From: Dehalococcoidia bacterium
GTDB lineage: Bacteria > Chloroflexota > Dehalococcoidia > Bin125
Assembly (NCBI GenBank): GCA_963663235.2
Contig: CAXXNO010000005.1
Location: 1-64,000 of the forward strand
Length of the DNA: 64,000 nucleotides
Direction of reading: 5' to 3'
Shown: in pieces, positions 4,713-63,814 of the stretch
Layout of the letters: every line of letters begins with the position of its first letter
Position numbering within the stretch: the first letter of the stretch is position 1
The notes under the pieces: generated by a model
The model's input: only the letters and a program-made list of their open reading frames with translations
Database searches by the model: none
What the model was told of the DNA's origin: nothing
Translations under genes and position numbers: made by a program

Positions 4713-5202
4713 GTCAGCAACTCCACCGGATCAGCGAAACGCGGCGCTGCCGAAGGCAACTGCTCGACGCTTGTTGGCTTCAGGAAATCGCGGCCTAGAG
4801 GGCATGCGGCTCCCGCTCTTGAGTCGATTCCTTCACTTAACAGTCGAGGGAAGGCACGACTTGTGACGCGACCCACGCATCAGGCCATCGTCGGTCGGGG
4901 CGGCTCCCTCTCGTCCGCTGTCCCGAAGGTCGGGGACTCAACGACTCGAATCGATCATCGGCAGGGAGCGGCGATCCACGCAGACTGCGAGTTCGTGCCG
5001 CGTTGGGACCACGGGGCCGTATCCCCCAATGAACCGCAGCGGGGCGCGGTTTGCGACACCACCAAGGTGGGTGCTCCGCGAGACAGACGGCTCCGGCGCC
5101 AAGGGGCTGGGCCATCCAACCGCCGGGTTTCCCCGCACAGACGGCGGACTCGATCGGACCGACGATCTCCCTGGAGGGTGCCACCCTCCCCGAGGCTGTG
5201 CC

Positions 5203-6348: not shown

Positions 6349-6367
6349 GGCGAGAGCGTGGTTCGGC

Positions 6368-8167: not shown

Positions 8168-8242
8168 GCGCTGTCTGTCCTTCCCTGCGCGGGCGTCGGA
8201 GCGGCCGCCACGCCTCGCTGCGCGTCGACAGAAGATAGCAGA

Positions 8243-8507
8243 CCTCACCCCCCGGCCCTCCTTCGACCCTTCGACAAGCTCAGGGCAGGCAAGCCCAGGA
8301 CAGGCCTCTCCATCGGGAAGCGATGGAGAGGGGGAATGGTGGGAAGCGAGGGGTAGTGGGGAAACCTCACCCCCTAGCCCCCTCTCCATCGGCAAGCGAT
8401 GGAGAGGGGGAAGGAGAAGGGCAGATCACAGGGCCGCCCCGTTCTCCTTCGACCCTTCGACAAGCTCAGGACAGGCCTCTCCATCGGCAAGCGATGGAGA
8501 GGGGGAG
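8243..8507. repeat. Cluster of REP-like palindromes
   Basis: Three copies of the hairpin CTCTCCATCG-G(G/C)AAG-CGATGGAGAG (8306, 8382, 8477) and two copies of CCTTCGACCCTTCGACAAGCTCAGG(G/A)CAGGC. Confidence 0.85.
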
Positions 8508-8619
8508 ATAAGGAGGGCCAGGAGGAATGCCCAGATTGTGAAGTCCAGCGCATCCATAGCGCTGCGATCCTCGGTGCGTGCAAGGAAACTGCACAAAGTA
8601 CAAATGACTCATTTTCGGG

Positions 8620-8928
8620 TGCGCCCGCCCGCTCCCCAACATCGTGGGCGAGCAGCGGGTGCAGGTGGGCCAACGCATCGTCTCGCTCTCGGCAGGCGGT
8701 GGCGGCTACGGCGACCCCCACACCCGCGACCCCCAAGCCGTCCTCCGGGACGTCGTCGAGGGCTACATCTCCATCGACCGCGCCCGAGCGGTCTACGGGG
8801 TCGCCGCCCGCGGCGACGCGCAGCGGCGCGAGACGCTCTCCGTCGATGCGCCTGGCACCGCCCGGCTCCGCGGGGACCGCACCCGTGATCGCACCGAGCC
8901 CCCCGATCGGTGCCCTGTCACCCTCTGA
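8620..8928 (+). pseudogene. C-terminal remnant of a hydantoinase B gene
   Basis: LPNIVGEQRVQVGQRIVSLSAGGGGYGDPHTRDPQAVLRDVVEGYISIDRARAVYGV aligns by eye with the C-terminus of 52234..54048; about 500 aa of N-terminus are missing. Confidence 0.85.
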
Positions 8929-13800: not shown

Positions 13801-16177
13801 CTTCGATGGGACCGACTTCACGCTCCACTTCGACGGCAGTGACGTGGGCCTGAGCGGCTTCAGGCTAGACGCCTTCGACGTCATCGGCCCCACCGAGATT
13901 CTGATGTCATTCACGAGCGCTGGATCGGTGCCGGGGATAAGCGGGACCGTCGATGACTCCGACCTGGTGCGGTTCACGGCGACGGGACTCGGCGCGGAGA
14001 CGAGCGGATCGTTCGAGTTGTACTTCGACGGCAGCGACGTGGGCTTGACGAGCAGCGGCGAGGACGTGGATGCCAGCAGACTCCTCGAGGACGGTCGGCT
14101 GCTGCTCTCGACGCGTGGATCGTTCGGCGTCTCCGGCGTCTCCGGCAGGGACGAGGATCTCCTGGCCTTTACCCCGAGCTCATTGGGGGCGAACACGGCC
14201 GGGTCCTGGAGCCTGTATTTCGACGGCAGTGACGTAGGCCTGAGCAGCAGCAGCGAGGACATCAACGCCCTTGGCCTGGATGGGGACGGCACGATCTACC
14301 TCTCCACCACGGGTGACCTGTCGGTGTCCGGCCTCTCCAGCGCCGATGAAGACGTCGTGGTGTTTACGCCCGCGTCGCTGGGCTCCAGCACGAGCGGCAG
14401 CTTTTCCTCGGCCGTGTTCTTCGATGGCAGCGCTTACGGGCTGAGCAGCAACGACCTGTACGCCATCGACATCCCGACCGGGCCCGCCAACGGCGTCCCG
14501 GTCGCGGACGACCAAGGCGTGGCAACGCTCGAAGATGCCGCTGTGCCTGTCACCCTCACTGGGAGCGATCCAGACGGCGATCCGTTTACTTATCAGGTGG
14601 CGACCGATCCTGCTCACGGGAGCCTCAGCGGCGCCGCGCCGGATCTGACCTACGTCCCGAGCGCAGACTTCAACGGGGCGGATAGCTTCACCTTCACGGT
14701 GAACGACGGAACCGCCGATAGCGATCCGGCCACGGTGACAATCGCGATCGCCGCGGTGAACGATGCCCCTGTGGCCGACGACCAGGCCGTGACGGCGAAG
14801 GAGAGTACGGACCTCGAGAACACCCTCACGGCGACCGATATGGATGGCGACGCCTTGACCTTCAATGTGCTCTCCGACCCCGCGCATGGGGCGCTGAGCG
14901 GCGCCGCGCCGGACCTGACCTACACGCCGGATGTCGGCTACACGGGAGGCGATAGCTTCACCTTCGACGCGAGCGACGGGGACGCGGGCAGCAACGTCGC
15001 CACGGTTTCCATCACGGTGGCTCCCAACAGCGCCCCCGTGGCCGACGCCGGTCCCGATCAGACGGTGAGCGACAGCGACGGCACCGGGAGCGAGTCCGTC
15101 ATCCTCGACGGCAGCGGCTCCTTCGACCCGGACGGCACCATCGTCTCCTACGTGTGGAAGGAGGGTGGGACCCTCGTCGGCACAGGGATGAACCCCACGG
15201 CCACGTTTGGCGTCGGAATCCACACCGTGACGCTGACCGTGACGGACAATGGGGGCGCGACGGGTCTGGCCGCGACTGTTGTCATCTCCGTGGCCCCGCC
15301 CAACCAGGCGCCGGTCGCCAACGCGGGGCCGGATCAGGCAGGCGACGAGGGGAGCTCGATCGCCTTTGACGGTTCCGGCTCGTCCGACCCCGACGGTGCG
15401 ATCGTCGCGTATGCCTGGGACTTCGGGGACGGAGGGAGCGCGACCGGCGTCGCGGCCGCGCATGACTACGCTGATAACGGGAGTTACACCGTGACCCTGG
15501 CGGTCACGGACAACCAAGGGGCTACCGCGACAAACACTGCGACCGTCACGATCGCCAACGTGGCGCCGATCGCCGACGCCGGCGGACCCTACTCCGGGAA
15601 CGTCGGGGCGCCCATCACGTTCAGCGGCGCTGCGACCGACCCGGGCATCCTCGATACGCACGCGTTCAGCTGGGACTTCGGGGACGGGAGCGTGGCCAGC
15701 AATGGTCAGACGGTGACGCACACGTACACGGCGGCGGGGGGCTACACCGTGACGCTGACCGTGACGGACAACGGGGGCGCCACAGATATACACGCCGCGA
15801 CCGTGTCGGTCAGCGCGGTTCCTGTGGGTGACGGGATCAAGCTATCCAAGAACGCCGATTTCTCCACGGAGGATCTGGAGTTCGCCTTCGGCGAGACGGT
15901 CTACATCCTCGTCTGGAGTGATCAGCTGGACTTCAACGAGATCAAGGAAGCCCGGTGGCAGCTGGAAGGAGCGGAGCAGCCGCTCATCAATAACCTCAAC
16001 GGGACCTATGCTGCCGAGGTGGTGATCGATGATAGCGTCAAGCAGCTCAGCCCCGGCGAGATCGCCGAGAGCACACTGACGATCCAGATAGAGGACGAAT
16101 TTGGGAATCAGTTGGAGATCGAGATGGACGTCACCTTGATTGGACCTCCCGACACGGGAGCTCCCGGAGGCGACTGA
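10811..16177 (+). CDS. Secreted S8 (subtilisin-like) serine peptidase with IPT/TIG x4, FDGSDVGL repeats, cadherin-like Ig and PKD domains
   Basis: Signal peptide; catalytic motifs VIDTGVD, HGTHVAG, GTSMATPHVAG; four PTVSSVSP..G...GG..VTITG repeats; PKD-type motifs YAWDFGDG and FSWDFGDG. Confidence 0.95.
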   Translation: MKRLLVGLCVLVALVAAAEGGRASDLRADDHDEAPFVPDELIISFNPGVTEEEIEEFYEDYELDEEDDLDGDDDDDDPEEVLVERRQGLADSFTDTLIARLEQDPRVDYVERNYILTVDATPSDPDFSQLWGLHNTGQTGGTADADIDAPEAWDVTTGSSAVIVGVIDTGVDYTHEDLAANSWTNPGEIAGNGLDDDGNGYVDDVHGINAITDTGDPMDDEGHGTHVAGTIGARGNNGIGVVGVNWTVQIAACKFLDSSGSGTTADAVKCFKYFNSLRNLHGQNVLLTSNSWGGGGFSQALRDAMAGLDQPGMPPILHAAAAGNSNSNTDLSPHYPSSYTLDNLIAVAATDDTDAYASFSSHGVISVDLAAPGVSIRSTTIPGNSYVSLSGTSMATPHVAGAAALIWSTELSLTAAQVKGRILSTVDPLSDLSKSTVTNGRLNLFNAVTSATPPPPPPLSDVFADDVEGGVGTWTATGLWHQSTRRADSPVTSWYYGDEATGTYDTGDRNSGALTSSGISLAGSTDAELAFSEWSAVESGTSWDRTRVQASSDGVTWTTVFESHGTGTTWVQRTVDLSAFAGGDVYLRFWFDTIDGLINTFEGWYVDDASVRAAGSAPAPTVSSVSPSDGPAVGGTPVTITGADFAAGATVTFGGAAATNVSVDAPGTITADTPAHAAGSINVVVTNPDLQSGALPNGYGYLTPGPAPTVSSVSPPDGSTAGGAPVTITGADFVAGATVTFGGAAATTVSVDDSNTLTVETPAHAAGPVDVVVTNPDLQSDTLSSGYAYLESAPAPTVSSVSPPDGSTAGGAPVTITGADFVAGATVTFGGAAATTVSVDGSGTITADTPAHAAGPVAVVVTNPDLQSDTLPDGYAYVAPAPAPTVSSVGPPNGPTAGGTPVTITGADFVAGATVTFGGAAAATVSVDDSGTISADTPAHAAGPVDVVVTNPDLQSGTLPDGYTYLAPASASTILYFSLGSSGAVDGLSVANEDIVAFDGTDFTLHFDGSDVGLSGFRLDAFDVIGPTEILMSFTSAGSVPGISGTVDDSDLVRFTATGLGAETSGSFELYFDGSDVGLTSSGEDVDASRLLEDGRLLLSTRGSFGVSGVSGRDEDLLAFTPSSLGANTAGSWSLYFDGSDVGLSSSSEDINALGLDGDGTIYLSTTGDLSVSGLSSADEDVVVFTPASLGSSTSGSFSSAVFFDGSAYGLSSNDLYAIDIPTGPANGVPVADDQGVATLEDAAVPVTLTGSDPDGDPFTYQVATDPAHGSLSGAAPDLTYVPSADFNGADSFTFTVNDGTADSDPATVTIAIAAVNDAPVADDQAVTAKESTDLENTLTATDMDGDALTFNVLSDPAHGALSGAAPDLTYTPDVGYTGGDSFTFDASDGDAGSNVATVSITVAPNSAPVADAGPDQTVSDSDGTGSESVILDGSGSFDPDGTIVSYVWKEGGTLVGTGMNPTATFGVGIHTVTLTVTDNGGATGLAATVVISVAPPNQAPVANAGPDQAGDEGSSIAFDGSGSSDPDGAIVAYAWDFGDGGSATGVAAAHDYADNGSYTVTLAVTDNQGATATNTATVTIANVAPIADAGGPYSGNVGAPITFSGAATDPGILDTHAFSWDFGDGSVASNGQTVTHTYTAAGGYTVTLTVTDNGGATDIHAATVSVSAVPVGDGIKLSKNADFSTEDLEFAFGETVYILVWSDQLDFNEIKEARWQLEGAEQPLINNLNGTYAAEVVIDDSVKQLSPGEIAESTLTIQIEDEFGNQLEIEMDVTLIGPPDTGAPGGD
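12661..13712 (+). repeat. Four 264-nt intragenic IPT/TIG repeats
   Basis: cccggctcccacggtcagcagcgtc recurs at 12661, 12925, 13189 and 13453. Confidence 0.9.
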
Positions 16178-16665: not shown

Positions 16666-17532
16666 CTACGAGAGCCGTCGCGCGAAATCCGCATAGCGAT
16701 CCAACATCGGAAGAACGATGTCGGCGGAGGCCGGGGGGAGACCGAACACCAGTCGGTCGAATCCCAGCTCGATCAGCTCTCGCGCCTCCCTCTTGCCTTG
16801 TTCCGGATCGTCCAGTGGGCGGAATTGGTACGCCGTTAAGTTGATCGTGTCCATGGTCCGGCCCGCTCGTGCCGCGGTCGCTTCGAGATCGGCAAGGGCG
16901 GCCGGCAAGTCATAGCGGCCGGTCAGGGGCATCCAGCCATCGCAGTAGTCCACGATGCGGGCGTAGGCCCACTGCGTCGCGTTCGCACCAAGGAGGATCG
17001 GCGGGCCACCCGGCTGCACCGGCTTCGGATACGACCGGATCGGGGCGAAGTCGACGAACCGTCCGTGAAACTCTGGCTCTTCCTGGGTCCAGATCGCCCG
17101 CATGGCGAGGACGCGCTCGCGGGTGACCTCCCAGCGATCGCTGAGGGCCACCCCATGATTCGCCAATTCTTCCGCGTTCCACCCCGCGCCGATGCCCAAG
17201 ATCACCCGTCCGCTGGAGATTAGGTCCAGCGACGCCACCTCTTTCGCGGTGATGATCGGGTCGCGCTGGGCCACGAGACACACCCCGAACGCTAGCTTGA
17301 TCGTGGTCGTAGCTGCCGCAGCCGCCGCCAGCGCCACGAACGGGTCGTGCATGTGCCAGTACTCCGGTGGCATTTCGCCGCCCTGAGGAAACGGCGTCTC
17401 CCGGCTCGCGGGAATGTGCGTGTGCTCAGGGAAGAACAGGGACTCGAACCCGCGCTCCTCCGCGGCCCGCGCCATCTCTGCCGGCTGAATCGCGCCGTCA
17501 GTTGGAAATATCGCGACGCCGAAGTCGATCAT
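16666..17532 (-). CDS. LLM class F420-dependent oxidoreductase (Rv2161c-like)
   Basis: AEERGFESLFFPEHTHIP, DPFVALAAAAAAT, RDPIITAKEVASLD, GAGWNAEE, PKPVQ. Confidence 0.92.
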   Translation of the reverse strand: MIDFGVAIFPTDGAIQPAEMARAAEERGFESLFFPEHTHIPASRETPFPQGGEMPPEYWHMHDPFVALAAAAAATTTIKLAFGVCLVAQRDPIITAKEVASLDLISSGRVILGIGAGWNAEELANHGVALSDRWEVTRERVLAMRAIWTQEEPEFHGRFVDFAPIRSYPKPVQPGGPPILLGANATQWAYARIVDYCDGWMPLTGRYDLPAALADLEATAARAGRTMDTINLTAYQFRPLDDPEQGKREARELIELGFDRLVFGLPPASADIVLPMLDRYADFARRLS

Positions 17533-17616
17533 CCTCAATCCTTCCGGAAACTATCCAGCTGCCGTCTGCGGGTGGCTACCGCACAGCGGGCAGATGATAC
17601 CCATCATCATCGGTGC

Positions 17617-37607: not shown

Positions 37608-39410
37608 ATGGCGGCGACTAGCAAAGCAACGGCCCGAGTTGACCCGATCACCATCGAGGTGCTGCGCAGCGCCTTCATCGCGACCTGCAACGAGATGGCT
37701 CTCACCGTCGCCAAGACCGCCTATTCCACCCCGGTCAACGAAGGTCACGACTTCGCCACCGGCCTGTACGACAGTCACGGCAACCTCGTCTCACAGGGCG
37801 AGTTCGACCTGCCTGCGTTCGTGGGCCTCACGTTGCTCACTGTGCCGGAGGTCATGCGGCAGATCGGACCGGAGAACATCGAGCCCGGCGATATCTACAT
37901 TATCAACGACCCCTACGTGGCGACGACCCACTGCAACGATATTCACTTCATCAAGCCGATCTTCCACGGCGGTGAGCTGGTGGCCTTCACTTCATCCACC
38001 GCGCACTGGTCCGACGTGGGCGGCGTGGCGCCGGGGACGCTGAACACCGCGGCGCGCAGCCACTACGAGGAGGGGATGCGCATCCCCGCCGTCTCGCTGT
38101 ACAAGCGTGGGGTGTTCAACGAAGACATCGTCGCCCTGTTGCTGGTCAACATGCGCCAATCGTGGGAGCGGATCGGCGATCTCAACGCCCAAATTGCGTC
38201 GGTCAAGGTCGGCGAGCAGCGGATCTTGAAACTGATCGACAAACACGGCGTGGAGGCGGTGCTGGCCACGATGGACGTGGTGCAGGACCACTCGGAGCGG
38301 CTGGCGCGCGCCGCCTTCGCCGGCCTGCCGGACGGGGTCTACGACGCCGAGGACAGCGTCGACCAGGATCAATACACCGGCCAACCCAAGACGATCCGGC
38401 TTACGCTGACGATCGAGGGCGATCACGCCATCTTCGATTACAGGAAGAGTGACGGCCCCGCGCTCTCCGGCATCAACGGGACGATCGCGGGGACAACGTC
38501 GGGCACCTTCATCGCCATCGCCTCCATCTTGCCGCCGATGCCGATGAACGCCGGAGTGATGCGTGCCATCGAGATCAAGGCGAAGCGAGGGTCGATCGTC
38601 TGGGCGGAGCCACCGGTCGCTGTCTCCGTGATGACGATTACGGTCATGGACTGTGTGATCGGGTCGGCCACGCTGGCGCTGGGGCAAGCATTGCCCGAGC
38701 GCGCGGTCGGGATGGCGTCGGCGATCCTCAACTCGACCTACGCGGGAAACGACGACCGGCCGGGCTTTCAGGCGCCCTTCATCAACTACAGCTGGTCCTT
38801 CGGCGGAATGGGCGGGGCGCCCACGCACGACGGCCCCAATTCCACGGCGCCCCCGTTCGGCGCCAGCGTGTCGAACATTCCCAGTGAACTGCAAGAGCGC
38901 CGCTACCCAGTCTTGTACCGGCGCTCCAACCTCCTGGCCGATTCCGGCGGGCCGGGAGAGTCTCGAGGCGGCGCGGCCCTCAATACCATCGTCGAGTTCC
39001 CGTTCAAGGAAGTGAGCGGGGCCGGACTTTCGACGCTGGGCAATCGCGAACTCTTTGGACCGCCCGGGATCTTCGGAGGAGGAGTCGGCCAGGTCGCGCG
39101 CTTGTCGCTCAACGACGGGACCGAGAACGAACGGCACTTGGGCACGACGTCCACGAACGCGCCGGTGCAGCATGGCGATGTCTTGACCTTCCGCACGAAC
39201 GGGGGCGGCGGCCACGGCGATCCGCTCCAGCGGTCGCCCGAGCGCGTCCTGGAGGACATCAAGGACGACTACGCCACGATCGCAGGAGCGCGCGAGCAGT
39301 ACGGCGTTGTGGTGAAAGAGATCGACCGCCGTGCGCTGGTCTACGAGGTAGACGAGGCGGCGACGGCGAAGATGCGCGCCGGGATGCGCGCCGTTCGCGG
39401 CGCACGCTGA
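37608..39410 (+). CDS. Hydantoinase B/oxoprolinase family protein (paralog 2)
   Basis: DPITIEVLRS, NDPYVATTHCND, AHWSDVGG, DSGGPGESRGG, GGGGHGDP; closely similar to 6368..8167. Confidence 0.94.
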   Translation: MAATSKATARVDPITIEVLRSAFIATCNEMALTVAKTAYSTPVNEGHDFATGLYDSHGNLVSQGEFDLPAFVGLTLLTVPEVMRQIGPENIEPGDIYIINDPYVATTHCNDIHFIKPIFHGGELVAFTSSTAHWSDVGGVAPGTLNTAARSHYEEGMRIPAVSLYKRGVFNEDIVALLLVNMRQSWERIGDLNAQIASVKVGEQRILKLIDKHGVEAVLATMDVVQDHSERLARAAFAGLPDGVYDAEDSVDQDQYTGQPKTIRLTLTIEGDHAIFDYRKSDGPALSGINGTIAGTTSGTFIAIASILPPMPMNAGVMRAIEIKAKRGSIVWAEPPVAVSVMTITVMDCVIGSATLALGQALPERAVGMASAILNSTYAGNDDRPGFQAPFINYSWSFGGMGGAPTHDGPNSTAPPFGASVSNIPSELQERRYPVLYRRSNLLADSGGPGESRGGAALNTIVEFPFKEVSGAGLSTLGNRELFGPPGIFGGGVGQVARLSLNDGTENERHLGTTSTNAPVQHGDVLTFRTNGGGGHGDPLQRSPERVLEDIKDDYATIAGAREQYGVVVKEIDRRALVYEVDEAATAKMRAGMRAVRGAR

Positions 39411-44799: not shown

Positions 44800-45025
44800 G
44801 CAGCAACGAACGGCCGCGACGCTAGACCAGCGGATGGGGCGTCGTGCCCCCTGAAGATGGACGGCGCGCTGCCAGCGCCCCTCCCCCCACCCAACGGCAC
44901 ATCGCACAGGAGCGTCCGCCATCCGCCATTCATTTGCGCGCTCCGGCGCACAACGCCCTTCGGATCACCACAGGCGCGCTCGTGTACGATTGAAGATGAG
45001 CAATCGGTGATGGAGGAGGTGGAGT

Positions 45026-45687
45026 GTGGCGGAAGCGGAATCCCTGGAAGCGAAGCTCGCGCAGATCCGCGCCGACGCGGAGAAGAATCTGCCGCGCGAA
45101 TATCAGGAAGGGGCCACGCGCCTGGTCCATGAGCTCGACGAGGCGGTCATCGCTGAGGCCGTCAACGTCGGCGACGAGGCGCCGGACTTCACCCTCGCCA
45201 GCGCACAAGGCCAACGCCACACGCTGACGGATGCGCTCCATCGCGGCCCGGTGGTGCTCAACTTCTACCGCGGCTTCTGGTGACCGTACTGCCGTACGGA
45301 GCTGCAAGGTTTGCAGCAAGTCTACGACGAGATCCAGGCGCTCGATGGCGTGATCTTCTCCATCGGGCCGGAGACGTTGAAGAACGCCGGCAAAATGCAA
45401 AAAGCACGGGCGCAACCAGCCCCGTGCTCCTCGATACTGACGGCGCCGTGATCCGGGCCTACAAGATCGGCTACGACGTCCCCGACTATCTCCGCTCCTT
45501 CTTCGAGGGCTGGAAGATCTCCTTACCGCAGTTGAACCCGGACACTGGCTGGCTCCTGCCCATCCCGGCGACGTATGTGATCGATCAGCAGAGCGTTGTC
45601 CAGATGCGGTACGCCAATTCGGACTACACGCGCCGGGTCGAGCCGGCCGAGGTGATCGCTACCTTGCGCCGCATTCAAGGCCGCTGA
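45026..45687 (+). CDS. Peroxiredoxin-like (AhpC/TSA) selenoprotein, UxxC; frameshift in an A run near 45400
   Basis: GPVVLNFYRGFW-TGA(45281)-PYCRTELQGLQ matches the family motif RGxWCPYC with U in place of C. The C-terminal LPIPATYVID...DYTRRVEP is restored by adding one A. Confidence 0.85.
45301..45317 (+). promoter_or_regulatory. Candidate bacterial SECIS hairpin (Prx-like gene)
   Basis: GCTGCAA-GGT-TTGCAGC: perfect 7-bp stem with a G-containing loop, starting 17 nt after the UGA. Confidence 0.65.
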
Positions 45688-47997: not shown

Positions 47998-48291
47998 GAC
48001 GTTCCCTCTCCTGGCGCCCTCGGCGCGCTCTTCACCATCGTGACACGGTCGCCGCTGTCTGTCGTCCTCGCGGCCGCCGTTGAGAGAGAGGTCGTTTGGA
48101 CTGCGCCGGCGCGGGACGGCTGGCTGACGGTCGTGGCCGTGGGCTGGCCCGGGCGGGCAGAGCGCGCCACTCCCGTGTACGCTTCGTGACGGCGATGAGC
48201 GGGCGCCTTGGCCTGCGAGATCGCCGTCCAGCGGCCCCCGGCCGGATCGACGGCCGCTGTTGCCGCGACGACACCTGGGAGAGGAACATCG

Positions 48292-49308
48292 ATGGCTGGC
48301 CTGGGCATCAAATTTCCGGACACCGACTCGCTGCAAACCGAAGACGTGTTGGAGTGCGCCAAGGCGGCGGACGCCGCGGGCTTCGAGTCGCTGTGGATGT
48401 CGGACTACGCGTCGGGGGACGTCTTCGCCGTGCTCTCCGCCTGCGCCGTGGTCACCGAGCGGATCCAGCTCGGCACCGGCATCGCGGTGATCTTCAACCG
48501 CTCCCCCATCGCCATGGCGATGGGGGCGGCGTCGCTGGACACGATCTCGAAAGGGCGCACCATCCTGGGGCTGGGGCAAGGCCATCGCGCCATCGTCGAG
48601 GAGCAGATGGGTCTCACGTACGACCGGCCGCTGCGGCGGCTGCGCGAGTACACGGAGATCATCCGGGCGCTGCTCCGAGACGGGGAGGTCTCGTATCGGG
48701 GCGAGATCTTTTCGCTGGACTACAAGCCCTGGGTGCAGTTCTATCGGCAACGCATCCCCATCGTGCATCCGCCGCTGGTGCAGAAGAGCGCGCGGCGCGC
48801 GGGCGGCATCGCCGACGGCACCCTCTCGACTCTGGTGACGCCCGATCGCCTGCGCAACCTCATCCGCTGGATCGCGGACGGAGCACGGGAAGCCGGCCGC
48901 GATCCGGCCGAGGTGGAGATCGGCGCTTATCTATGGACGGTTGTGGCCCCCGACGCTGAGTCCCGTGACCGAGGCCGCCGGCTCATCAGGCAGCAGATCG
49001 CCTGGTACGCGGGCAACCTCCCCCTGTACGCGAACCTGGTGCGTGAGAGCGGCTTCAGCGAGAACGTGGACCGGGTCGCGGACCTGTGGCAGAGCGGCGA
49101 CCAGGACGCGGCCGTCGACGCTGTCGCGGACGGCCTCGTGGACGCCGTGGGCGTCGTGGGGGACCTGGATTACTGCCGCGCCCGCATCGATGAGTACCGC
49201 GCCGCCGGCCTGCAGCGACCGGTCATCTACCCGTTGCCGCTGAGCCCGCGCGAGACCAAGCACGCCTTCCTCAGCGCCGTCGAGATCCTGGACGGCGCGA
49301 GCGCCTGA
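48292..49308 (+). CDS. LLM class flavin/F420-dependent oxidoreductase
   Basis: AADAAGFESLWM, TERIQLGTGI, GRTILGLG, GIADG, EAGRDP. Confidence 0.9.
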   Translation: MAGLGIKFPDTDSLQTEDVLECAKAADAAGFESLWMSDYASGDVFAVLSACAVVTERIQLGTGIAVIFNRSPIAMAMGAASLDTISKGRTILGLGQGHRAIVEEQMGLTYDRPLRRLREYTEIIRALLRDGEVSYRGEIFSLDYKPWVQFYRQRIPIVHPPLVQKSARRAGGIADGTLSTLVTPDRLRNLIRWIADGAREAGRDPAEVEIGAYLWTVVAPDAESRDRGRRLIRQQIAWYAGNLPLYANLVRESGFSENVDRVADLWQSGDQDAAVDAVADGLVDAVGVVGDLDYCRARIDEYRAAGLQRPVIYPLPLSPRETKHAFLSAVEILDGASA

Positions 49309-49395
49309 ACCTCAGTCGAGCCGATCACGCTCAGCCATCGTTGAGCGCGTTGGGCTCGCCGGGGTGCGCGTGAGAGACGCACGGCCGGAAGGGTG

Positions 49396-49869
49396 CTATG
49401 GCACCTCGGGTGGGGGGTCGATGTTGCTCTTGTCCGATGGCTCCTCACCATCCGTGACCCGATTGAACGTGACCATGAACTGCGAGGATTGCTTCACCCG
49501 CTCCACGGCCATCCGCGCAACGAGGGTGGTCAGCCCGCCCAGCGCCTTCCGCTGAGGCACGTCGGCGATGCTCACGACGGTCCATCCGTGCTCCGCCGCC
49601 GCCTCGATGCCGCGTCGCATCGACTCCTCGTCGGGGAACCCCTGCGTGTGCGTCGGTGCGCTGGCCTGCTCGAACCAACGCTCACGGCGCTCCCCCTCCC
49701 GGCGCCGCTCTTCGAGTTTGGCGTCCAGCCGAGCGCGGCCCTGCTTGCTTTGCTCCCTCGCGGCGGTGCGTGCTCGCTCCGCCATCTCTTCCGCCCGCGC
49801 CCGCGCCTCCGGTGCCCTCTCCTGTGCGATCTGCTTCGCCCGCTCCAGACGTTCGCGCCAGCTCGGCAT
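49396..49869 (-). CDS. Hypothetical protein (coiled-coil N-terminus)
   Basis: GGAGG RBS before ATG; charged helical N-terminus and a small alpha/beta C-terminus. Confidence 0.55.
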   Translation of the reverse strand: MPSWRERLERAKQIAQERAPEARARAEEMAERARTAAREQSKQGRARLDAKLEERRREGERRERWFEQASAPTHTQGFPDEESMRRGIEAAAEHGWTVVSIADVPQRKALGGLTTLVARMAVERVKQSSQFMVTFNRVTDGEEPSDKSNIDPPPEVP

Positions 49870-50153
49870 CGTTCTGTACCTCCACCGGGCGCTCCCGGCC
49901 TAACGGCCCGGATGATCCCCATCTGCGGATATGCAAGCGACCGCCGTAGGAAGACCGGCTTTGCATGCTACCACCGCCATTGCGGATCGACCTCCCCGCA
50001 CAGAAGGAGCGCCCCCGAAGTCGATGCTCGGCGCCGGGATCGTGCCGAGTGAGCGACGCCGCCGATCACGGATCACCGTCGAGAAGACGTAGCAGTCGCT
50101 GAGTTGGACGGAGGGCGGTAGAATGACCCGCACTGGAGGAGGAGATGACGCCA

Positions 50154-50408
50154 ATGAAAACCGATGGACTGGAGATCCGCGTCGAGTACTGCGCCACCTG
50201 AAACTACTTACCGCGAGCCCTCTGGATGATGGGCGAGATCATGACAGACATTCAGAACGACGTGAGAAGCGTGGTGCTCAACCCTGGCAGCGGCGGCGTC
50301 TTCGAATGGTCGGTGAATGGGGATCTGGTCTTTAGTAAGGCTTCGACCGGCCGCTACCCCGAGATGAAGGAGCTCAAAGAGCTCATCTACGCCAAGCTGG
50401 ATGCGTGA
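50154..50408 (+). CDS. SelW/SelT/SelH (Rdx) family selenoprotein, CxxU
   Basis: MKTDGLEIRVEYCAT-TGA(50199)-NYLPRALW...PGSGGVFEWSVNGDLVFSKASTGRYPE; in frame with ORF 50226..50408; GGAGGAGG RBS. Confidence 0.92.
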
Positions 50409-50417
50409 GGGTGCGAC

Positions 50418-50951
50418 ATGAAATCGATGGTCCGAGTCCTCAACCCGGTGGGGCATGTCCGCGTCAAAGAAGTGCAGGCGGCCCTGCGGCCGCGGTCCTT
50501 GGCCAACCTTCGCCCGGGGATCCTGGAGAATCGCAAGGCCAACGCCCGCCTGCTGATGGAGACGATGGTTGATCGCCTGCGCCAGCGCATGCCGCTCGGG
50601 GAGCTCACCGTCGGGAGCAAGCCCGTCGCCGCGCCGCCGAGTCGCGCCACCCTCGATCGCCTCGTCGCCAACTGTGACTTCGTCCTCGTGGGGTCGAGTG
50701 ATTGAGGCTCCTGCACGGCGTGGAGTGTCCACGCCGCCATCCTGCTTGAGAGCCAAGGAATCCCGACCGTAACCGTCGGTACGGACGCCTTCGCAGAGTT
50801 GCTGCGGATGGAAGCGGAACAGCGCGGCATGCCCGATCTGCCGCACGTCCTCGTGCCGCATCCGCTCGGCGGCGTGAAAGAAGACGCGGTCCGCGCCAAG
50901 ACCGTGCCGGTGGTGGACGACCTCATCGACGCACTGACGAGCGCCGGGTGA
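50418..50951 (+). CDS. UGSC-family selenoprotein
   Basis: ...CDFVLVGSSD-TGA(50703)-GSCTAWSVHAAILLESQGIPTV...GMPDLPHVLVPHP; the frame stays open to TGA 50949-50951, which overlaps the next start. Confidence 0.9.
50716..50736 (+). promoter_or_regulatory. Candidate bacterial SECIS hairpin (UGSC gene)
   Basis: CGGCGTGGA-GTG-TCCACGCCG: perfect 9-bp stem starting 10 nt after the UGA. Confidence 0.7.
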
Positions 50952-52036
50952 GCGATCCCCCGACGGCGCCGGGCGGCTCGCTCGGCGACGGCCGGGCCGC
51001 GGACGTTCTCGATCTGCCCGCTGACCCGGTCGCGTTCGCGGCGGAGTGCATACGGCGCAACTGGTCCAACGGACTGCCGCTCATCCCGCCGACGGAAGAG
51101 CGCGTCGCAGCCATGCTCGCCGAGGCGGGTCGGGACGCCCTGCAAGTGATCGCGGTGCTCGCGCCTCGCCAAGGGGAGGCGACCGTGCAAGCGATCGCCA
51201 CGAACGCGGTCATGGCCGGCTGCGAGCCGAAGCATCTGCCCATCGTCGTGGCAGCCGTACAGGGAATCGGCAGCGCGCGGTTCAACGTCGACGCCATCAA
51301 CGCGACGACGCACCCGTGCGCCGTCTTGGTGCTGGTCAACGGACCGATCGCGCGAGAGGCCGGCATCCATGGCGGCAGCGGTTGCTTCGGGCCCGGGTAT
51401 CCCGCCAACGCAACCATTGGTCGGGCCGTGCGACTCGTGCTGCTGAACGTTGCCGGGGCTCTCCCCGGTCACGGGGACAACGCCACGCAGGGCACGCCCG
51501 CCAAGTTCGCCTTCTGTGCCGCGGAGCGGGAAGATGCCAGCCCGTGGCCGCCATTTCACACCACGCGTGGCCTCGCGCCGGCAGAAAGCGCCGTGACCGT
51601 CTTCGCCTGTGAGGGACCGCACAACATTCAGGACCACGGCAGCAACACGGCGGACGGTGTTCTCAAGACGATCGCCGGCGCGATGGGTCAGGCCGGCAGC
51701 AACAACATCCTTGCCCGCGGCGAGCCCCTCCTGGTCTTGGGTCCGGAGCACGCCGCCACGATCGCGGCCGAAGGCTGGGGGCGCGAGGAGATCCAGGAGT
51801 TCCTCTTCAAGCACGCTCGCTACCCCAACGACCGGCTTTCCCCTGAGTTCTTGGATGTCGTCCAGCAACGACTGCAGGGCGACGAAGGCGGCACGCCCAT
51901 CGACATCACAGCCCCGTTACCGATCTCCGACCGGGCTGAGGAGATCCACATCATCGTCGCCGGCGGGCCCGGCAAGCACTCGGCCTGGATGCCGTCGTTC
52001 GGCGGCATGACCCGTCCTATAACTGTGCCGCTCTGA
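50948..52036 (+). CDS. Conserved hypothetical protein of UGSC operons
   Basis: WSNGLPLIPPTEERVAAML, IATNAVMAGC, ATTH, VNGP, ANATIGRA, IVAGGPG; translationally coupled (GTGA) to the UGSC gene. Confidence 0.85.
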   Translation: MSDPPTAPGGSLGDGRAADVLDLPADPVAFAAECIRRNWSNGLPLIPPTEERVAAMLAEAGRDALQVIAVLAPRQGEATVQAIATNAVMAGCEPKHLPIVVAAVQGIGSARFNVDAINATTHPCAVLVLVNGPIAREAGIHGGSGCFGPGYPANATIGRAVRLVLLNVAGALPGHGDNATQGTPAKFAFCAAEREDASPWPPFHTTRGLAPAESAVTVFACEGPHNIQDHGSNTADGVLKTIAGAMGQAGSNNILARGEPLLVLGPEHAATIAAEGWGREEIQEFLFKHARYPNDRLSPEFLDVVQQRLQGDEGGTPIDITAPLPISDRAEEIHIIVAGGPGKHSAWMPSFGGMTRPITVPL

Positions 52037-52233
52037 CTCTCGCCCGCCCCGCTGGAGCGTGCCGCCGTGTCGCGTCCGAATCCTCCACGAGCGGTCCATC
52101 GTGGCAAGACCGCTGCTAGACTCCCGCCTGGGCGGTGTCGGAGAAGCGGGACGAGCGCCGTCGCTCTCCGCTCGCATCGATGGCCCGCGGGCCCTCGGAG
52201 GCCCGCTTTTGCATCTGACGAGGAGATCGCCCG

Positions 52234-54048
52234 GTGACACCGAGTGACGGTAGCGCGACGGCATCCGCCATCGATCCGATCCAGCTTCTCATCATGGCCA
52301 ACCGCCTCGACGGCGTCGTCCGCGAGATGACCAATACGCTCGTGCGCACCGCCCAGTCCGCCACCCTCGCCGCCCGTGATCTCTCCACCTCTATCTCCAG
52401 CGCAGACCACGAGCTCTTCGCCGCCCCCGAAGGCATCCCCGTCCACGTCTACGGCTCCGGCCTCCTCTGCGAGGCCATGGCCGAGATCCATCCCGACTTC
52501 AAGGAGGGCGACGCCTTTCTCCACAACGATCCCTACCTGGGCAACACCCACGCCGCCGACCACACCGTCTTGGTACCCGCCTTCTGCGAGGGCGAGCACG
52601 TCTTCACCATGTGCGTCAAAGCGCACCAGGCGGACATCGGCGATTCTCTCCCGACCACCTACATGCCCAAAGCGGTCGACGTGTACGCCGAGGGTGCCCT
52701 CATCTTCCCCTGCGTCCGCATCCAGGAGCACTACAAAGACGTGGCGGACATCATCCGCATGTGCGAGAAGCGCATCCGCGTTCCTGAGGTCTGGTACGGC
52801 GACTATGTGGCCATGATCGCGGCGGCCCGGGTAGGCGAGCAGGGCGTCAAGGAGTTCTGCGCCAAGTTTGGCCTGGAGACCGTGAAGGCCTTCGTGCGCG
52901 AATGGCTCGACTACTCTGAGCGCCTCGCCGACGCCGCGATCCGACGCCTCCCTGCCGGCCGCCTCCACGCCAGCTCGACCTTCGATCCCTTCCCGTACCT
53001 CCCGGAGGGTCTAAAACTCCAAGCCAACATCGACGTCGATCCGGACGCGGGCCACGTCACCGTGGACCTGCGCGATAACCCCGACTGCATCCCCACCGGG
53101 CTCAACCTCAGCCGCGCCACCGCCACGAACGGCGGCATCTCCGGCGTCCTCATGGTCCTCAACTCCATGCGCGATGTGCAGACCCAAGTCCCCAACAACG
53201 CCGGGACTTTCCGCCGCATCCACGTCCTGCTCCGCGAGAACTGCGTCGTCGGAATCCCTGTCCATCCCACCTCCTGCTCCATGGCCACCACCGGCATTGC
53301 TTGTCACCTCGAGAGCATGGTCGAATCTGCCTTCGCCCGTCTGCGGGACGGCATCGGTCTAGCGGAGCCCGCTCGGGGACAGGGGCCGTACATGGCGGTC
53401 GTGTCCGGCTTCGACCGGCGCCGCAACGAGCCCTACACGCTTTCGTTGTTCACCGGCAGCGCCGGCGGCCCGGGCGGTCCCGACGTCGACGGCTGGCTCA
53501 CGTTCCTGATGCCTGGCTCGGCCGGCGTGCAATATATCGACGCGACCGAGCTGCTCGAGCAGAAATATCCCTTCCTCGTCTTCGAGATGCGAGTCCGGCC
53601 CGACTCCGAAGGCGCGGGTCGTCAGCGCGGCGCGCCCGGCGGCATCACCGTCTATGGCCCCCTGGACGACCCCCAGGAGGTCCACTACTCCATGGATGGC
53701 ATGATCAACGCTCCGAAAGGCGTGCAGGGAGGCGGCCCCTCCCGCGGACCGGCGGCGCAGCTGATCGACCGCCAGGGCGCGACCCACGATCTGCCGAGCA
53801 TCGTTGGCGAACAGACGCTGCACGCCGGAGAGCGGATCGTCTCGCTCTCGTCCGGCGGTGGTGGCTACGGTGACCCCTTCACCCGTGATCTGGACGCAGT
53901 CCTTCGTGACGTCGTCGACGGCTACGTCAGCGTCGACCGCGCCAGTGAGACCTACGGTGTCGTCGTCACCGGCGACCCCACCCGTGTCGAAACCCTCGCC
54001 GTCGACCGTCAAGCCACCGCAGCATCCCGGGCGCGCGGGCGCCCGTAG
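52234..54048 (+). CDS. Hydantoinase B/oxoprolinase family protein (paralog 3, distinct subfamily)
   Basis: HNDPYLGNTHAADH, KAHQADIG, DSEGAGRQRG, GGGGYGDP. Confidence 0.93.
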   Translation: MTPSDGSATASAIDPIQLLIMANRLDGVVREMTNTLVRTAQSATLAARDLSTSISSADHELFAAPEGIPVHVYGSGLLCEAMAEIHPDFKEGDAFLHNDPYLGNTHAADHTVLVPAFCEGEHVFTMCVKAHQADIGDSLPTTYMPKAVDVYAEGALIFPCVRIQEHYKDVADIIRMCEKRIRVPEVWYGDYVAMIAAARVGEQGVKEFCAKFGLETVKAFVREWLDYSERLADAAIRRLPAGRLHASSTFDPFPYLPEGLKLQANIDVDPDAGHVTVDLRDNPDCIPTGLNLSRATATNGGISGVLMVLNSMRDVQTQVPNNAGTFRRIHVLLRENCVVGIPVHPTSCSMATTGIACHLESMVESAFARLRDGIGLAEPARGQGPYMAVVSGFDRRRNEPYTLSLFTGSAGGPGGPDVDGWLTFLMPGSAGVQYIDATELLEQKYPFLVFEMRVRPDSEGAGRQRGAPGGITVYGPLDDPQEVHYSMDGMINAPKGVQGGGPSRGPAAQLIDRQGATHDLPSIVGEQTLHAGERIVSLSSGGGGYGDPFTRDLDAVLRDVVDGYVSVDRASETYGVVVTGDPTRVETLAVDRQATAASRARGRP

Positions 54049-54347
54049 GGCCTCGGCCGCGCCGAGGCAGGGATCTCGCTTGCGAGCCGTCCCGCGACTC
54101 CGGAGAATGCCGAAAGAGGAAGATCAGGGCCACGCTCAACGAACAGATCAGTGGGGGGCAGGGATTCCGCATCGTCATGTCGTTGCCGGAACGTTCCACG
54201 CGGAGCCTTGAGGAGGGCCGTCGTCTGGTGGGCCCGTGATGAGGCTGGAGTAGAAGCCGGTCGAACACCCGCGTCCGCCATGCCGTCTCTCCTAGAGGAC
54301 GTGTGTGCCATGGTCGGCCGCGGGCGAATTGGAAAGAGGGAACGCAC

Positions 54348-54878
54348 GTGAAAAGCGAGTTCACAACCCAGCAGGAGCTCGACGCGGGGCTCTCGCACGT
54401 CCTCGAGTCGCCTCAGGACGGCGGAAGGTTGGAGGCCATCTTCGTCCGGCCGGCAGTGGACAAGCGCGAGTCTCCGGAGACGGCCTCGCTTTCGCCTGCC
54501 GGCGGCGTTCACGGCGACAAGTGGGCGTCCTCCGGGGCAGATCCCCGCGCGCAAGTGACGCTCATGAACGCTCGGATTCTCAACCTGGTCGCGGGAAGTC
54601 GCGACCGTTGGGCTCTTGCCGGTGACCAACTCATCGTCGACTTGGATCTGAGCCAAGAGAACCTCCCTGCCGGTCAGCGGCTGGCCATCGACGATGCGGT
54701 GCTGGAAGTGAGCGAGCTCCCCCACACCGGGTGCCAGAAGTTCTCGCAGCGCTACGGAACGACGGCGGCTCGATACATCAACGCGCCCGCGCGGGCGAGC
54801 CTCAACCTGCGCGGCGTCAACGCCATCGTGGTCAAAGCCGGGACCGTGCGACGCGGGAGCGAAGTGCGCAAGGTTTGA
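54348..54878 (+). CDS. MOSC domain protein
   Basis: GGVHGDKW, AQVTLMNAR, LAGDQLIVDLDLS, PHTGCQKF, NLRGVNAIVV. Confidence 0.88.
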   Translation: MKSEFTTQQELDAGLSHVLESPQDGGRLEAIFVRPAVDKRESPETASLSPAGGVHGDKWASSGADPRAQVTLMNARILNLVAGSRDRWALAGDQLIVDLDLSQENLPAGQRLAIDDAVLEVSELPHTGCQKFSQRYGTTAARYINAPARASLNLRGVNAIVVKAGTVRRGSEVRKV

Positions 54879-60942: not shown

Positions 60943-61871
60943 TTACGCCTGAGCCAGCTCCCAGAACCGTTCCATCTGCGACACGATCTCCTCAACAGTA
61001 TCCACCCCGGTCGTCTGGCAAGGGTCGAACAGGAGATCCGCCGGCTCAATGGCGCGCATCGCCGCAACGTCGGCCGCGATCTGCTCCGCCGAGCCGCTGA
61101 ACATCGGGCGGTCGTCTCCCTGTGGCGCATCGCTGATGCGGCCGTTCGCCCGCACCACCAGCTCCAGCTCCGCCGGATCCCGACCAGCCTCCTCCGCCAT
61201 CGTCTTGATGGTCCCGAACATCTCCGTCATCACCTCCGGCGGGAAGAACACCGGGTTCCAGCCATTACAGAGCGTCGCAATGCGCGGGAACGCACGTCTC
61301 TCGAAAGCGCCCATGTAGATCGGCGGGTGGGGTTGCTGCACTGGCTTCGGGAAGATGTGGGATTTAGGCACGTGGTAGAACTCGCCATGGAACTCCACGG
61401 GATCGCTGGGCCAGATCGCCTTGAGGACCTGAAGGAACTCGTCGGCCCGCCGGCCCCGCTCGCGCATTAGGACGCCGAAGACGTCGCACTCGTCTTCCGA
61501 CCAGGCGATGCCGAAGGCGACGCGCAGCCGCCCCGCTGAGAGGACGTCCAACGTGGTCAGCCGCCGCGCCAGCATCACGGGGTTGTAGTACGGAATGTTG
61601 ATCGTGCTCGTACCCAGGGCGACGCGGCTCGTGTGGGCCGCGTCGAACGTCAAGGTCTCTAGCGGATCGAGCACGATCTTGTAATGGTCCGGCAGCATCC
61701 CGTTTGCCGAACCGGGGTACGGGGGGTCTTGGGTTCGAGCGGGTAGAGGAGGCGCTCCGTCACCCAGACCGACTCGTAGCCCAGCGCCTCCGCCCGTTGG
61801 GCCACTGCGATGAGCGCTTCCGGACTCGCGGCCGGGCCGATGTGCGGGAGTCCGAATCCAAGACGCATCAC
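60943..61871 (-). CDS. LLM class F420-dependent oxidoreductase; frameshift in a C run near 61725
   Basis: MRLGFGLPHIG...AEALGYESVWVTERLLYP, then LDPLETLT...LARRLTTLDVLSAGRL...PKPVQQPHPPI. Confidence 0.88.
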
Positions 61872-62043
61872 TTCCTCCGATCGTCCGAGCTACCGCTCCG
61901 TCGTTGTGTGCCCGTTCGCCGCGGCCCCGCTGATCGTCGGCCTCCCCCACGAAGACCAGTGGGCTGCATGAGTTGTGCCCCTGTCCCCTATGAAAGATGC
62001 ACCCCAGCCGGCCTGCTTCAGACGAGGCTCCAGAAAGACGCGC

Positions 62044-62511: not shown

Positions 62512-62705
62512 GGCTCAGTCCTCCTCTGTAACCGTTCGCGCTTTGCAGCCTACCGAGCGGAGCGCGATCCCACAACGAGCGGCGCTCGGTGTCGTCCTCG
62601 CCCAGCAGGCATCGACGAGCGCTGTGGTGTCCGCGCTGCTGCGGCGCGCCGTCTCTGGCATACTGTCGCCGCGCGGGCACTTCCGCCCCAGCTGAGGAGG
62701 ACGTG

Positions 62706-63814
62706 ATGGAACTGGGCTACTTCGCCATGCCGCTCCACCCGCCGGGGTCGGACTTCACCCAGACCATCCGCGAGGATATGGAGCAGATCGTCCTGCTCGA
62801 CAGCCTCGGCTACCGGGAGGCGTGGATCGGCGAGCACTTCACCAGCGCCTGGGAGAATATCCCCTCGCCGGAACTCTTCATCGCGGAAGCGCTGGCGCGG
62901 ACCGAGCACATCGTCTTGGGCACGGGCGTCACCTGCTTGCCCAACCACAACCCGTTTCACATCGCTCACCGCATCGCTCAGCTCGACCACCAGGCCCAAG
63001 GTCGCTTTCGCTGGGGGATCGGCTCTGGCGCGACGCCGCTCGACTTCGCCGTCTTCGGCGTCGACGACGAGGCAGGCGAGCATCGCCCGCTGACTCTTGA
63101 GACGCTCGACATGGTGCTGAGGATCTGGGAGGGGCTTCCGCCGGGGACCTACGAGAACAAGTTCTGGCGCTTCACCATACCCCCGCCAATGGAGGAGCTC
63201 GGGTTCTGGGTGCATTTAAAGCCCTATCAGCAGCCCCACCCGCCCATCGCCGTCGCTGGTCTCACGTCGCGCTCCGAGACCCTCATCCTCGCCGGGGAAC
63301 GTGGCTGGATCCCGATGAGCATTAACTATGTGCCGCCCTGGGTGCTGAAAACACACTGGGAGGCGGTAATCGAAGGTGCGAGCCGCAGCGGCCGGGCGCC
63401 GAGCCGCTCTTCCTGGAGAATTGCGCGGGAGGTCTTCGTCGCCGAGACCACGGAGGAGGCGCGCGAGGAGGCGCTGAATGGCACCATAGCCCGCGACTTC
63501 CTCGGCTACTTCAGGCCGATCCTGGAGAGATACGGCTTCCTCGAGATCGTGAAGCACGACGCGAACATGACCGACGACGACGTGACGGCGGCGTACATGG
63601 TCGACAACGCTACCTCGTTGGCAGTCCAGCGGATGTCGCGGGCCAGATCCGCACGCTCTACGACGAGGTCGGCGGCTTCGGCGTGCTCCTCGCGATGGCC
63701 CACGAGTGGCAGCCGCGCGACAAGTGGGAGCGGTCGATGCGGCTGCTCGTCGAGGAGGTCTTGCCGCGCCTCGCAGACCTGACGCCGGCCGAGCCGGCCG
63801 TCGCGTCGCCCTGA
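62706..63814 (+). CDS. LLM class flavin-dependent monooxygenase; frameshift near 63610
   Basis: GYFAMPLHPPG, AWIGEHF, LGTGVTCLP, KPYQQPHPPI. The shifted tail YLVGSPADV...EVGGFGVLL...SMRLLVEEVLP ends at TGA 63812-63814. Confidence 0.9.

Follow-up and report, generated by a model that had tools for sequence, protein, structure and literature searches.

Fusions of the selenoprotein family UGSC to a domain named 'Unknown_1' were reported by Zhang and Gladyshev in 2008 (PMC2398784, Fig. S1A). According to the same source, few selenoprotein families are as abundant in ocean and freshwater metagenomes as UGSC and SelW-like proteins, the SelW-like family being the most abundant marine one in the Global Ocean Sampling (GOS) data (PMC2398784), and Dehalococcoidia genomes with 46-49 selenoproteins have been listed elsewhere (PMC13326102). 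Here, a locus encoding an Rdx/SelW-like protein, a UGSC protein, and a partner of 362 amino acids (aa) belonging to the 'Unknown_1' domain family was analyzed computationally in a stretch of 64,000 nucleotides (nt) of contig CAXXNO010000005.1 from a Dehalococcoidia bacterium (GCA_963663235.2). This whole stretch is referred to as the window, and all coordinates are those of the window. The literature used for comparison consisted of excerpts of PMC2398784 and its supplementary file 1, PMC13188914, PMC9312934, PMC7539508, PMC1976440, and PMC13326102. The locus is a real example of the known pairing, the core of which has been known since 2008, and does not represent a system of a new type. Its three genes are conserved as a co-oriented module and probably make up one transcription unit, in which Rdx (CxxU) and UGSC (UxxC) are almost certainly genuine selenoprotein genes, their UGA being recoded with a hairpin 19-21 nt downstream. 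What is added here is the membership of Rdx in one clade, a fold and a GrdB-like hint for UGSC, and a census of fusions pointing to a thiol/selenol reductase. A sequence-only reading of the window had presented the operon as hidden; this term and the novelty it implies are overstated, with the fusion published in 2008 and Pfam and NCBIfam models for both selenoprotein families in existence, although a listing of open reading frames (ORFs) cuts both genes.

The UGSC gene of the window shows the same motif as the published UGSC/'Unknown_1' protein, with selenocysteine (Sec) in first place, and the block A-x-N-x-V-M-A-G-C ... N-A-T-T-H-P of Fig. S1A corresponds, compared by eye, to residues 84-123 of the window partner. 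Because of this match, the association of UGSC with the partner has to be regarded as already in print in the form of a fusion. However, the published form is one chain, whereas the window contains separate genes in a GTGA overlap, and in the clade of the window an Rdx gene precedes the pair in 75/80 loci. With the SelW-like/Rdx family, the window protein shares the N-terminal CxxU motif, the small size (87 aa), and scores above curated cutoffs, but most orthologs in its clade carry CxxC (73/76), the window being among three with Sec. The excerpts compared contain no mention of a fixed genomic partner (UGSC plus 'Unknown_1') for SelW-like proteins. Within the open-access literature on UGSC, Dehalococcoidia selenoproteins, and PF24696 (which did not include the 2005 study of the Sargasso Sea), there was also no mention of the Rdx-UGSC-partner trio, of a kinship between UGSC and GrdB/PrdB, or of fusions of the partner to redoxin or thioredoxin reductase (TrxR) domains. 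The statement of the sequence-only reading that UGSC has no assigned function agrees with these excerpts as well.

When TGA is translated as Sec (U), the Rdx protein (start codon ATG at 50145 or at 50154) begins with MTPMKTDGLEIRVEYCATUNYLPR and the UGSC protein contains LVGSSDUGSCTAWSVHAA. Both frames continue past their in-frame TGA with family-typical sequence, as already noticed from the sequence alone, and the Pfam matches cross both codons. The Rdx protein matched Pfam Rdx (PF10262) over residues 10-81 of 87 with 77.6 bits (cutoff 22.6; E-value 8.3e-22) and NCBIfam TIGR02174 with 65.4 bits (cutoff 34.2), while its score of 72.6 bits for NF041051, a narrower, Campylobacter-type equivalog, was under the cutoff of 88. 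Profile and CxxU motif with Cys/Sec alignment both place it in the Rdx/SelW-like family. The UGSC protein matched PF24696 over residues 7-174 of 177 with 158.5 bits (cutoff 25). The families named for the two genes in the sequence-only reading are thereby supported. TGA is the commonest stop codon of the window, the DNA of which has a GC content of 67%, and terminates 17 of 27 Pfam-supported genes; since TGA acts as an ordinary stop, a reassigned genetic code is not the explanation for the two in-frame codons. Translation table 11 yields the ORFs 50226-50408, 50418-50705, and 50799-50951, so that both genes are split by ORF calling, as had been foreseen.

For a comparison with related loci, species-representative genomes were scanned with an alignment of 31 partner sequences, resulting in 413 candidate stretches, of which 288 were confirmed. 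The best 80 of these 288, all from metagenome-assembled genomes of Chloroflexota, make up the locus set, whose gene content was read by tblastn. Codon counts are based on 81 sequences for UGSC (80 loci and the window) and on 76 for Rdx (75 loci and the window). Alignment of the homologs, as proposed in the sequence-only reading, revealed an interchange of Cys and Sec at both positions. The codon at the Rdx Sec position was TGC in 71 sequences, TGT in 2, and TGA in 3, namely in the window and the loci L005 and L044. Of 19 whole fused homologs, 13 carried Cys at the Sec position of UGSC, two had Ile, and four had Ser, Gly, Gln, or Leu, respectively. In the whole UGSC-partner fusion P0102 (565 aa) the motif reads N-L-G-S-C, with Leu for Sec/Cys in an otherwise near-identical context, which may be due to a TGA-to-TTA change or to an artifact of the translation in the source.

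The hairpins proposed after both UGA codons are real at their proposed places and fit the model for bacterial selenocysteine insertion sequences (bSECIS), while their energies alone are no better than chance; it is the conservation of the codons and of the synonymous sites that goes beyond chance. In the excerpt of PMC13188914 (Fig. 2 legend), this model calls for an upper stem of 4-16 bp capped by a loop of 3-9 nt, a G at the first or second position of the loop, in most cases with a G or U after it, a distance of 16-37 nt from UGA to the apical loop, and a minimum free energy of -7.5 kcal/mol or lower. Both hairpins agree with the model in all four points, with the loop beginning 21 nt past the UGA in Rdx (minimum free energy -9.1 kcal/mol) and 19 nt past it in UGSC (-16.7 kcal/mol for the centroid hairpin). 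A 6-bp core of the UGSC hairpin, CGUGGA/UCCACG with the loop GUG, is formed in 81/81 sequences, and changes in the hairpin are one-sided only (G-C to G-U). Over the hairpin, synonymous codons are frozen (codon 100, ACG in 80/81; 103, AGT in 81/81; 104, GTC in 81/81; 106, GCC in 79/81), and the mean relative codon entropy is 0.25 at codons 97-106 compared with 0.66 for 72 other conserved codons (one-sided Mann-Whitney p=0.0012), which includes the lowest 7-codon segment of the gene. The control for relatedness in this comparison is provided by the same sequences themselves. Since synonymous variation collapses exactly over the hairpin, it is argued to be a SECIS, and it is this synonymous-site conservation that supports it, as covariation is absent. 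For Rdx, the hairpins of L005 and L044 have the same loop and place as in the window on a stem of different sequence, which is suggestive, no more, as evolutionary support for a SECIS. No Rfam family reached its gathering score within the window.

Table 1. Features of the Rdx-UGSC-partner locus and of the region downstream of it (window coordinates).
Feature	Position	Strand	Details
Rdx/SelW-like selenoprotein gene	50145..50408	+	87 aa, motif C16-A-T-U19; translation with TGA=U and Pfam/NCBIfam matches
Sec codon (TGA) of Rdx, U19	50199..50201	+	aligned codon compared in 76 sequences
Candidate SECIS hairpin of Rdx	50217..50234	+	GCCCUC/GA-U-GGGC, 6 bp plus one-base bulge, loop UGGAU
UGSC-family selenoprotein gene	50418..50951	+	177 aa, motif U96-G-S-C99; Pfam UGSC 2.3e-46
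Sec codon (TGA) of UGSC, U96	50703..50705	+	TGA in 81/81 sequences
Predicted SECIS hairpin of UGSC	50716..50736	+	perfect 9-bp stem 50716-50724/50728-50736, loop GUG
Partner gene, 'Unknown_1' domain family	50948..52036	+	362 aa, GTG start; conserved Cys92, Cys190, R159, E193
Terminator-like hairpin	52187..52216 (hairpin 52187-52206)	+	7 GC pairs, then TTTTGCATCT; between partner stop and hydantoinase-B start
Hydantoinase-B gene	52234..54048	+	Pfam 1.2e-115

The neighborhood survey showed that the trio is conserved, as suspected. In 80/80 loci, the gene immediately preceding the partner on its strand is UGSC, the aligned ends being a median of 51 nt apart, and Rdx lies upstream of UGSC in the same orientation in 75/80, within 150 nt in 54 of these and at 157 nt in one. 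In the window, the GTG of the partner at 50948 overlaps the UGSC stop TGA at 50949-50951, which is the GTGA overlap with the 362-aa gene already described from the sequence. UGSC and the partner, being always adjacent in this clade and often fused elsewhere in either order, very probably constitute an obligate pair. No paralogs of the trio were found elsewhere in the window, and a scan of positions 49200-54400 revealed no sigma-70-like promoter.

Two further proteins were observed next to the module in related loci. A co-oriented protein of about 540 aa lies between Rdx and UGSC in 12/80 loci (L004, at 4918-6534, as well as L007, L011, L025, L026, L028, L029, L032, L034, L046, L073, and L080). 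It evolves fast (27-48% identity between loci), has a signal-peptide-like N-terminus, and matched nothing in Pfam or the Atlas; with its occurrence in 12/80 loci only and its absence from the window, it was rejected as a core component. A luciferase-like monooxygenase is often located directly upstream of Rdx (about 28/80 loci), and the window contains four paralogs of it, at 16669-17538 (-), 48208-49305 (+), 60946-61950 (-), and 62589-63779 (+), the nearest one 840 nt from Rdx. It was not counted as part of the module since the window copy is just 31% identical to that of L003.

The partner itself matched no family in Pfam (E<=5) or NCBIfam (E<=0.01) and no sequence of a solved structure in the PDB below an E-value of 0.2. 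Of 8000 candidates scored against the partner protein, more than 7000 were relatives, and all named ones are hypothetical proteins from Dehalococcoidia. In a separate, complete HMMER search with the same protein, the family comprised 5022 cluster representatives at E<=0.001, with 1223 of them at E<=1e-30. Among 152 members of the family, Cys92 is conserved in 139/151, Cys190 in 134/152, and Cys146 in 55/150, and R159, E193, and G91 are almost invariant, while in the close family (the 31-sequence alignment) all three cysteines are conserved. The AlphaFold2 (AF2) model of the partner has a predicted local distance difference test score (pLDDT) of 85.5 and a predicted template modeling (TM) score of 0.86. 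In a Foldseek search, class I fumarate hydratases ranked at the top (E-value 1.5e-4, probability 0.96, accounting for 15 of the first 18 chains) with TM-scores of 0.21-0.25 (best 0.24) and a root-mean-square deviation of about 17 A, followed by cyclic amide hydrolases of the Toblerone fold (E-values 0.015-0.6, TM-score about 0.2). Both leads for the fold were set aside on account of the low TM-scores. Look-alike clusters in the ESM Atlas, with a score of 0.97 and without Pfam assignment, bear the automatic names 'thiol-disulfide oxidoreductase' or 'thioredoxin family', which is a lead only.

A census of fusions was made on 150 listed representatives of the partner family, 70 of which, with a length of at least 400 aa, were scanned against Pfam; the remaining 80 are about 250-400 aa long and stand alone. 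A UGSC domain was present in 54/70 long representatives, whole and N-terminal in 18. In a further 32 the ORF opens inside the domain, just past the Sec position, and in 4 the domain is C-terminal and the protein ends with '...D', directly before Sec; these cut forms are the product of a gene caller acting on a Sec-containing fusion. No Pfam domain was found in 15/70. In place of UGSC, the partner domain is joined to a redoxin/AhpC-TSA domain with the motif CPTC in L044 and P0124, and to a C-terminal pyridine-nucleotide-disulfide oxidoreductase with the motif CAVCD in P0128. The fusion in L044 (1133-2836, -) is a paralog of 568 aa, 39% identical to the window partner, and lies on the opposite strand, 2.2 kb upstream of the Rdx(Sec)-UGSC-partner trio that this locus also contains. 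These fusions were found via the partner; a search for longer relatives starting from UGSC gave none at E<=0.001, which is weak evidence. Since the redox modules appear interchangeable (UGSC with Sec or Cys, redoxin with CxxC, TrxR-like domain) and the partner has two conserved cysteines, it is suggested that the partner is catalytic and needs a dithiol or selenol reductant.

Well-known thiol-dependent reductases with a redoxin module of their own are, for example, peroxiredoxins and methionine sulfoxide reductases fused to thioredoxin-like domains. Similarly, the family studied here joins, depending on the lineage, a Cys-bearing, putatively catalytic partner domain to interchangeable CxxC/UxxC modules or a TrxR-like flavoprotein, but its partner domain belongs to no described family. 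For UGSC, the AF2 model (pLDDT 88.5) shows a five-stranded beta-alpha fold of the flavodoxin type, with azoreductases and flavin mononucleotide (FMN) reductases as structural neighbors (E-value 2e-5, TM-scores 0.45-0.50), and the Sec opens helix 97-112 directly after strand 88-94. This model differs from the thioredoxin-like fold that had been supposed for UGSC in 2008 (PMC2398784).

Taken as a whole, the locus is probably best explained as one transcription unit for a thiol/selenol-dependent reductase system, most likely an NAD(P)H-fed thiol/selenol relay running from Rdx over UGSC to the partner enzyme. Judging from the conserved residues, the partner would be the catalytic subunit, acting via Cys92 (in 'MAGC') and Cys190, and each turnover would leave it oxidized or carrying a substrate adduct. 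The pair Sec96-x-x-Cys99 of UGSC, placed at the N-terminus of a helix in the flavodoxin-like domain, would then resolve the oxidized partner and thereby form a selenenylsulfide. For this step, a catalytic partner resolved by the Sec/Cys pair of UGSC, the chances appear about even. The thioredoxin-fold protein Rdx (Cys16-x-x-Sec19) may in turn re-reduce UGSC and would itself be reduced by a flavoprotein of the thioredoxin reductase type with NAD(P)H. This part of the scheme is more tentative, its chances falling somewhat short of even; the role of Rdx in the relay is derived from its upstream, co-oriented position in 75/80 loci.

In the described systems of selenoprotein B, a protein of about 240-436 aa compared with about 177 aa for UGSC, the same logic is found, with a UxxC selenoprotein (GrdB, GrdF, GrdH, or PrdB), a substrate-binding subunit, and thioredoxin with thioredoxin reductase as donors. 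A Stickland-type reading would make UGSC a miniature selenoprotein B whose Sec attacks a small molecule bound by the partner in the role of GrdE/PrdA, with cleavage of a C-N, C-S, or C-X bond; Cys99 would form the selenenylsulfide, to be reduced by Rdx or thioredoxin, and the redox center would not be the partner's own cysteines. This chief rival is unlikely on present evidence, though still of appreciable weight. The Sec-bearing C-terminal part of these proteins was matched weakly but repeatedly in a set of 29 UGSC sequences, with 21 sequences matching GrdB (TIGR01917, best E-value 6e-6), 16 GrdF, 11 PrdB, and 8 GrdH, and 11 the general selenoprotein B model. In the window protein, residues 81-162 align to positions 332-407 of the GrdB model, and a UxxC motif is given for PrdB as well as for UGSC in Table 2 of PMC2398784. 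The Sec of UGSC is almost never replaced, with TGA in 81/81 sequences here and 255 Sec against 21 Cys forms in GOS (PMC2398784), which is more in keeping with a role in catalysis than with one in a relay. However, the scores are far under the family cutoffs (16.3 bits for the window protein against 602.2 for GrdB), none of the 29 sequences matched Pfam GRDB (PF07355) at E<=5, and the full-length cutoff was reached for none of the selenoprotein B families (TIGR01917, TIGR01918, TIGR04483, PF07355). That Sec meets Sec in the GrdB alignment is inferred from the coordinates. The partner has no similarity to GrdE or PrdA (Pfam and NCBIfam at E<=0.01, Pfam at E<=5) and no evident pyruvoyl-forming site, GrdA is not found here, UGSC is replaced in some fusions of the partner domain by a redoxin CxxC or TrxR-like domain, and some fused UGSC domains are missing their redox residues. 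Taken together, UGSC appears weakly related, as distant kin, to the Sec region of selenoprotein B without being a member of that family.

The other explanations carry far less weight. It is quite improbable that the partner is an iron-sulfur hydro-lyase-like protein comparable to class I fumarate hydratase, with a cluster on Cys92, Cys146, and Cys190 that UGSC and Rdx would protect, assemble, or reduce. The top Foldseek rank of these hydratases and the conservation of the three cysteines in the close family are in line with such a protein, but the structural superposition is poor (see above), Cys146 is kept in just 55/150 members so that natural variants in most relatives argue against a cluster there, and no sequence relative turned up in the PDB or Pfam searches. 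Even less probable is the link, suggested in the sequence-only reading, to the adjacent hydantoinase-B, MOSC, and SDR genes, according to which the trio would serve one pathway with them, e.g., the reductive handling of a cyclic amide. In its favor are the co-orientation in the window, the weak matches of the partner to Toblerone-fold cyclic amide hydrolases, and the three hydantoinase-B paralogs and one amidase present in the window, but it is largely refuted by synteny. In none of the 80 related loci does a hydantoinase-B relative occur at a distance of up to 8 kb from the partner, the genes flanking the module vary from locus to locus, a gap of 197 nt with a terminator-like hairpin separates the partner stop from the hydantoinase-B start, and the Foldseek matches lie under any useful TM-score. 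That the TGA codons are true stops of pseudogenes or split genes, or sequencing errors, with no Sec inserted, is scarcely credible. No Sec machinery was seen in the window, the hairpin energies are unexceptional, and a frameshift in a nearby AhpC/TSA candidate points to flaws in the assembly or in the genes; nevertheless, TGA stands in all 81 species-level UGSC sequences with conserved protein on either side, the synonymous sites over the UGSC hairpin are frozen, Cys aligns at both positions in homologs, and Rdx and UGSC are both established selenoprotein families.

Several observations weigh against the reading of the locus as a selenoprotein module for a thiol/selenol relay. Neither the ORFs scanned nor a tRNA search of the window, which gave no tRNA of any kind, revealed selA, selB, selC, or selD, and no tRNA-Sec was detected in the 60 of the 80 loci that were scanned. 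The UGSC protein scored 121.5 bits with the NCBIfam equivalog NF041046 and thereby fell 3.5 bits below the cutoff of 125. Compared with shuffled sequences, neither hairpin is exceptionally stable (Rdx, z -0.86 with 35/200 folding as well; UGSC, z -1.43 with 17/200), and in the UGSC hairpin 0 pairs are changed on both sides among the 81 sequences, a covariation value equal to that of the shuffles. The Rdx SECIS has little beneath it, as there are just three Sec-type sequences, two of them near-identical over the hairpin. In 6/19 whole fused UGSC domains the redox position holds neither Cys nor Sec, and because this residue is missing, the UGSC domain of these six cannot be a redox relay. To call the partner an enzyme is to argue from conservation alone, since it has no convincing structural relative. 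Other genes are inserted between Rdx and UGSC in 20/75 loci (1.0-4.3 kb), and Rdx is absent upstream in three loci with full flanks (L040, L047, and L078), the two remaining loci without it (L036 and L065) stopping at a contig edge. Finally, the synteny figures are valid for one clade only, as all 80 loci are from Chloroflexota and were the best-scoring of 288.

As for the surroundings of the module, the terminator-like hairpin downstream of the partner comes from a consensus scan that returned 4 sites compared with 2.4 expected in the region. The three hydantoinase-B/oxoprolinase paralogs of the window (6371-8395, -; 37608-39407, +; 52234-54048, +) are about 30% identical to each other, and a short fragment at 8617-8871 (+) shares 62% identity with residues 515-599 of the third; a hydantoinase-A partner was not found among the window ORFs scanned. 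A third selenoprotein candidate of the AhpC/TSA (peroxiredoxin-like) type is located 5 kb upstream of the trio at 45011-45687 (+), with TGA at 45281-45283 in the motif FYRGFW-U-PYC and a 7-bp hairpin with the loop GGU 20-36 nt past the start of the UGA (z -2.40; 1/200 shuffles as stable). Its presence, like the published selenoprotein-rich Dehalococcoidia genomes, speaks in favor of Rdx and UGSC being genuine selenoprotein genes. Its frame shifts near an A-run at about 45396-45405, which is either an assembly error or the mark of a pseudogene, so that the C-terminal third lies in another frame, and Pfam AhpC-TSA matched the first part with an E-value of 1.3e-17 and the second with 3e-4. At 10811-16174 (+) the window encodes a secreted-type protein of 1788 aa with a subtilase domain as well as TIG, PKD, Big_9, and cadherin-like repeats. 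In the related loci, a tRNA-Ser with the anticodon UGA, which reads UCA and is not a tRNA-Sec, recurs about 8.3-9 kb downstream of the partner start in 15 of the 60 loci scanned (L003, L004, L007, L008, and 11 more), with a gene for seryl-tRNA synthetase nearby in L003.

The locus provides a defined test object of three small genes, including an always-adjacent partner with two conserved cysteines, for which natural fusions point to a redoxin and a thioredoxin-reductase-like domain as likely electron donors. Attention is further drawn to the partner family, which comprises about 5000 clusters but is covered by no Pfam or NCBIfam model, and the locus illustrates how ORF callers cut such genes at UGA, as in 36/70 long representatives (32 beginning just past Sec and 4 ending just before it). 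On a more speculative and rather doubtful note, the trio may represent a previously unrecognized class of selenoenzymes, related to the GrdB/PrdB reductases but compact and of a non-Stickland type. Sec96 of UGSC would be its catalytic nucleophile, 'Unknown_1' the subunit that binds the substrate, and Rdx/SelW the dedicated electron carrier. If true, this would be the first biochemical role for UGSC and for bacterial SelW-like proteins, both highly abundant in aquatic microbes, and 'Unknown_1' would add a new enzyme fold that extends across about 5000 sequence clusters.

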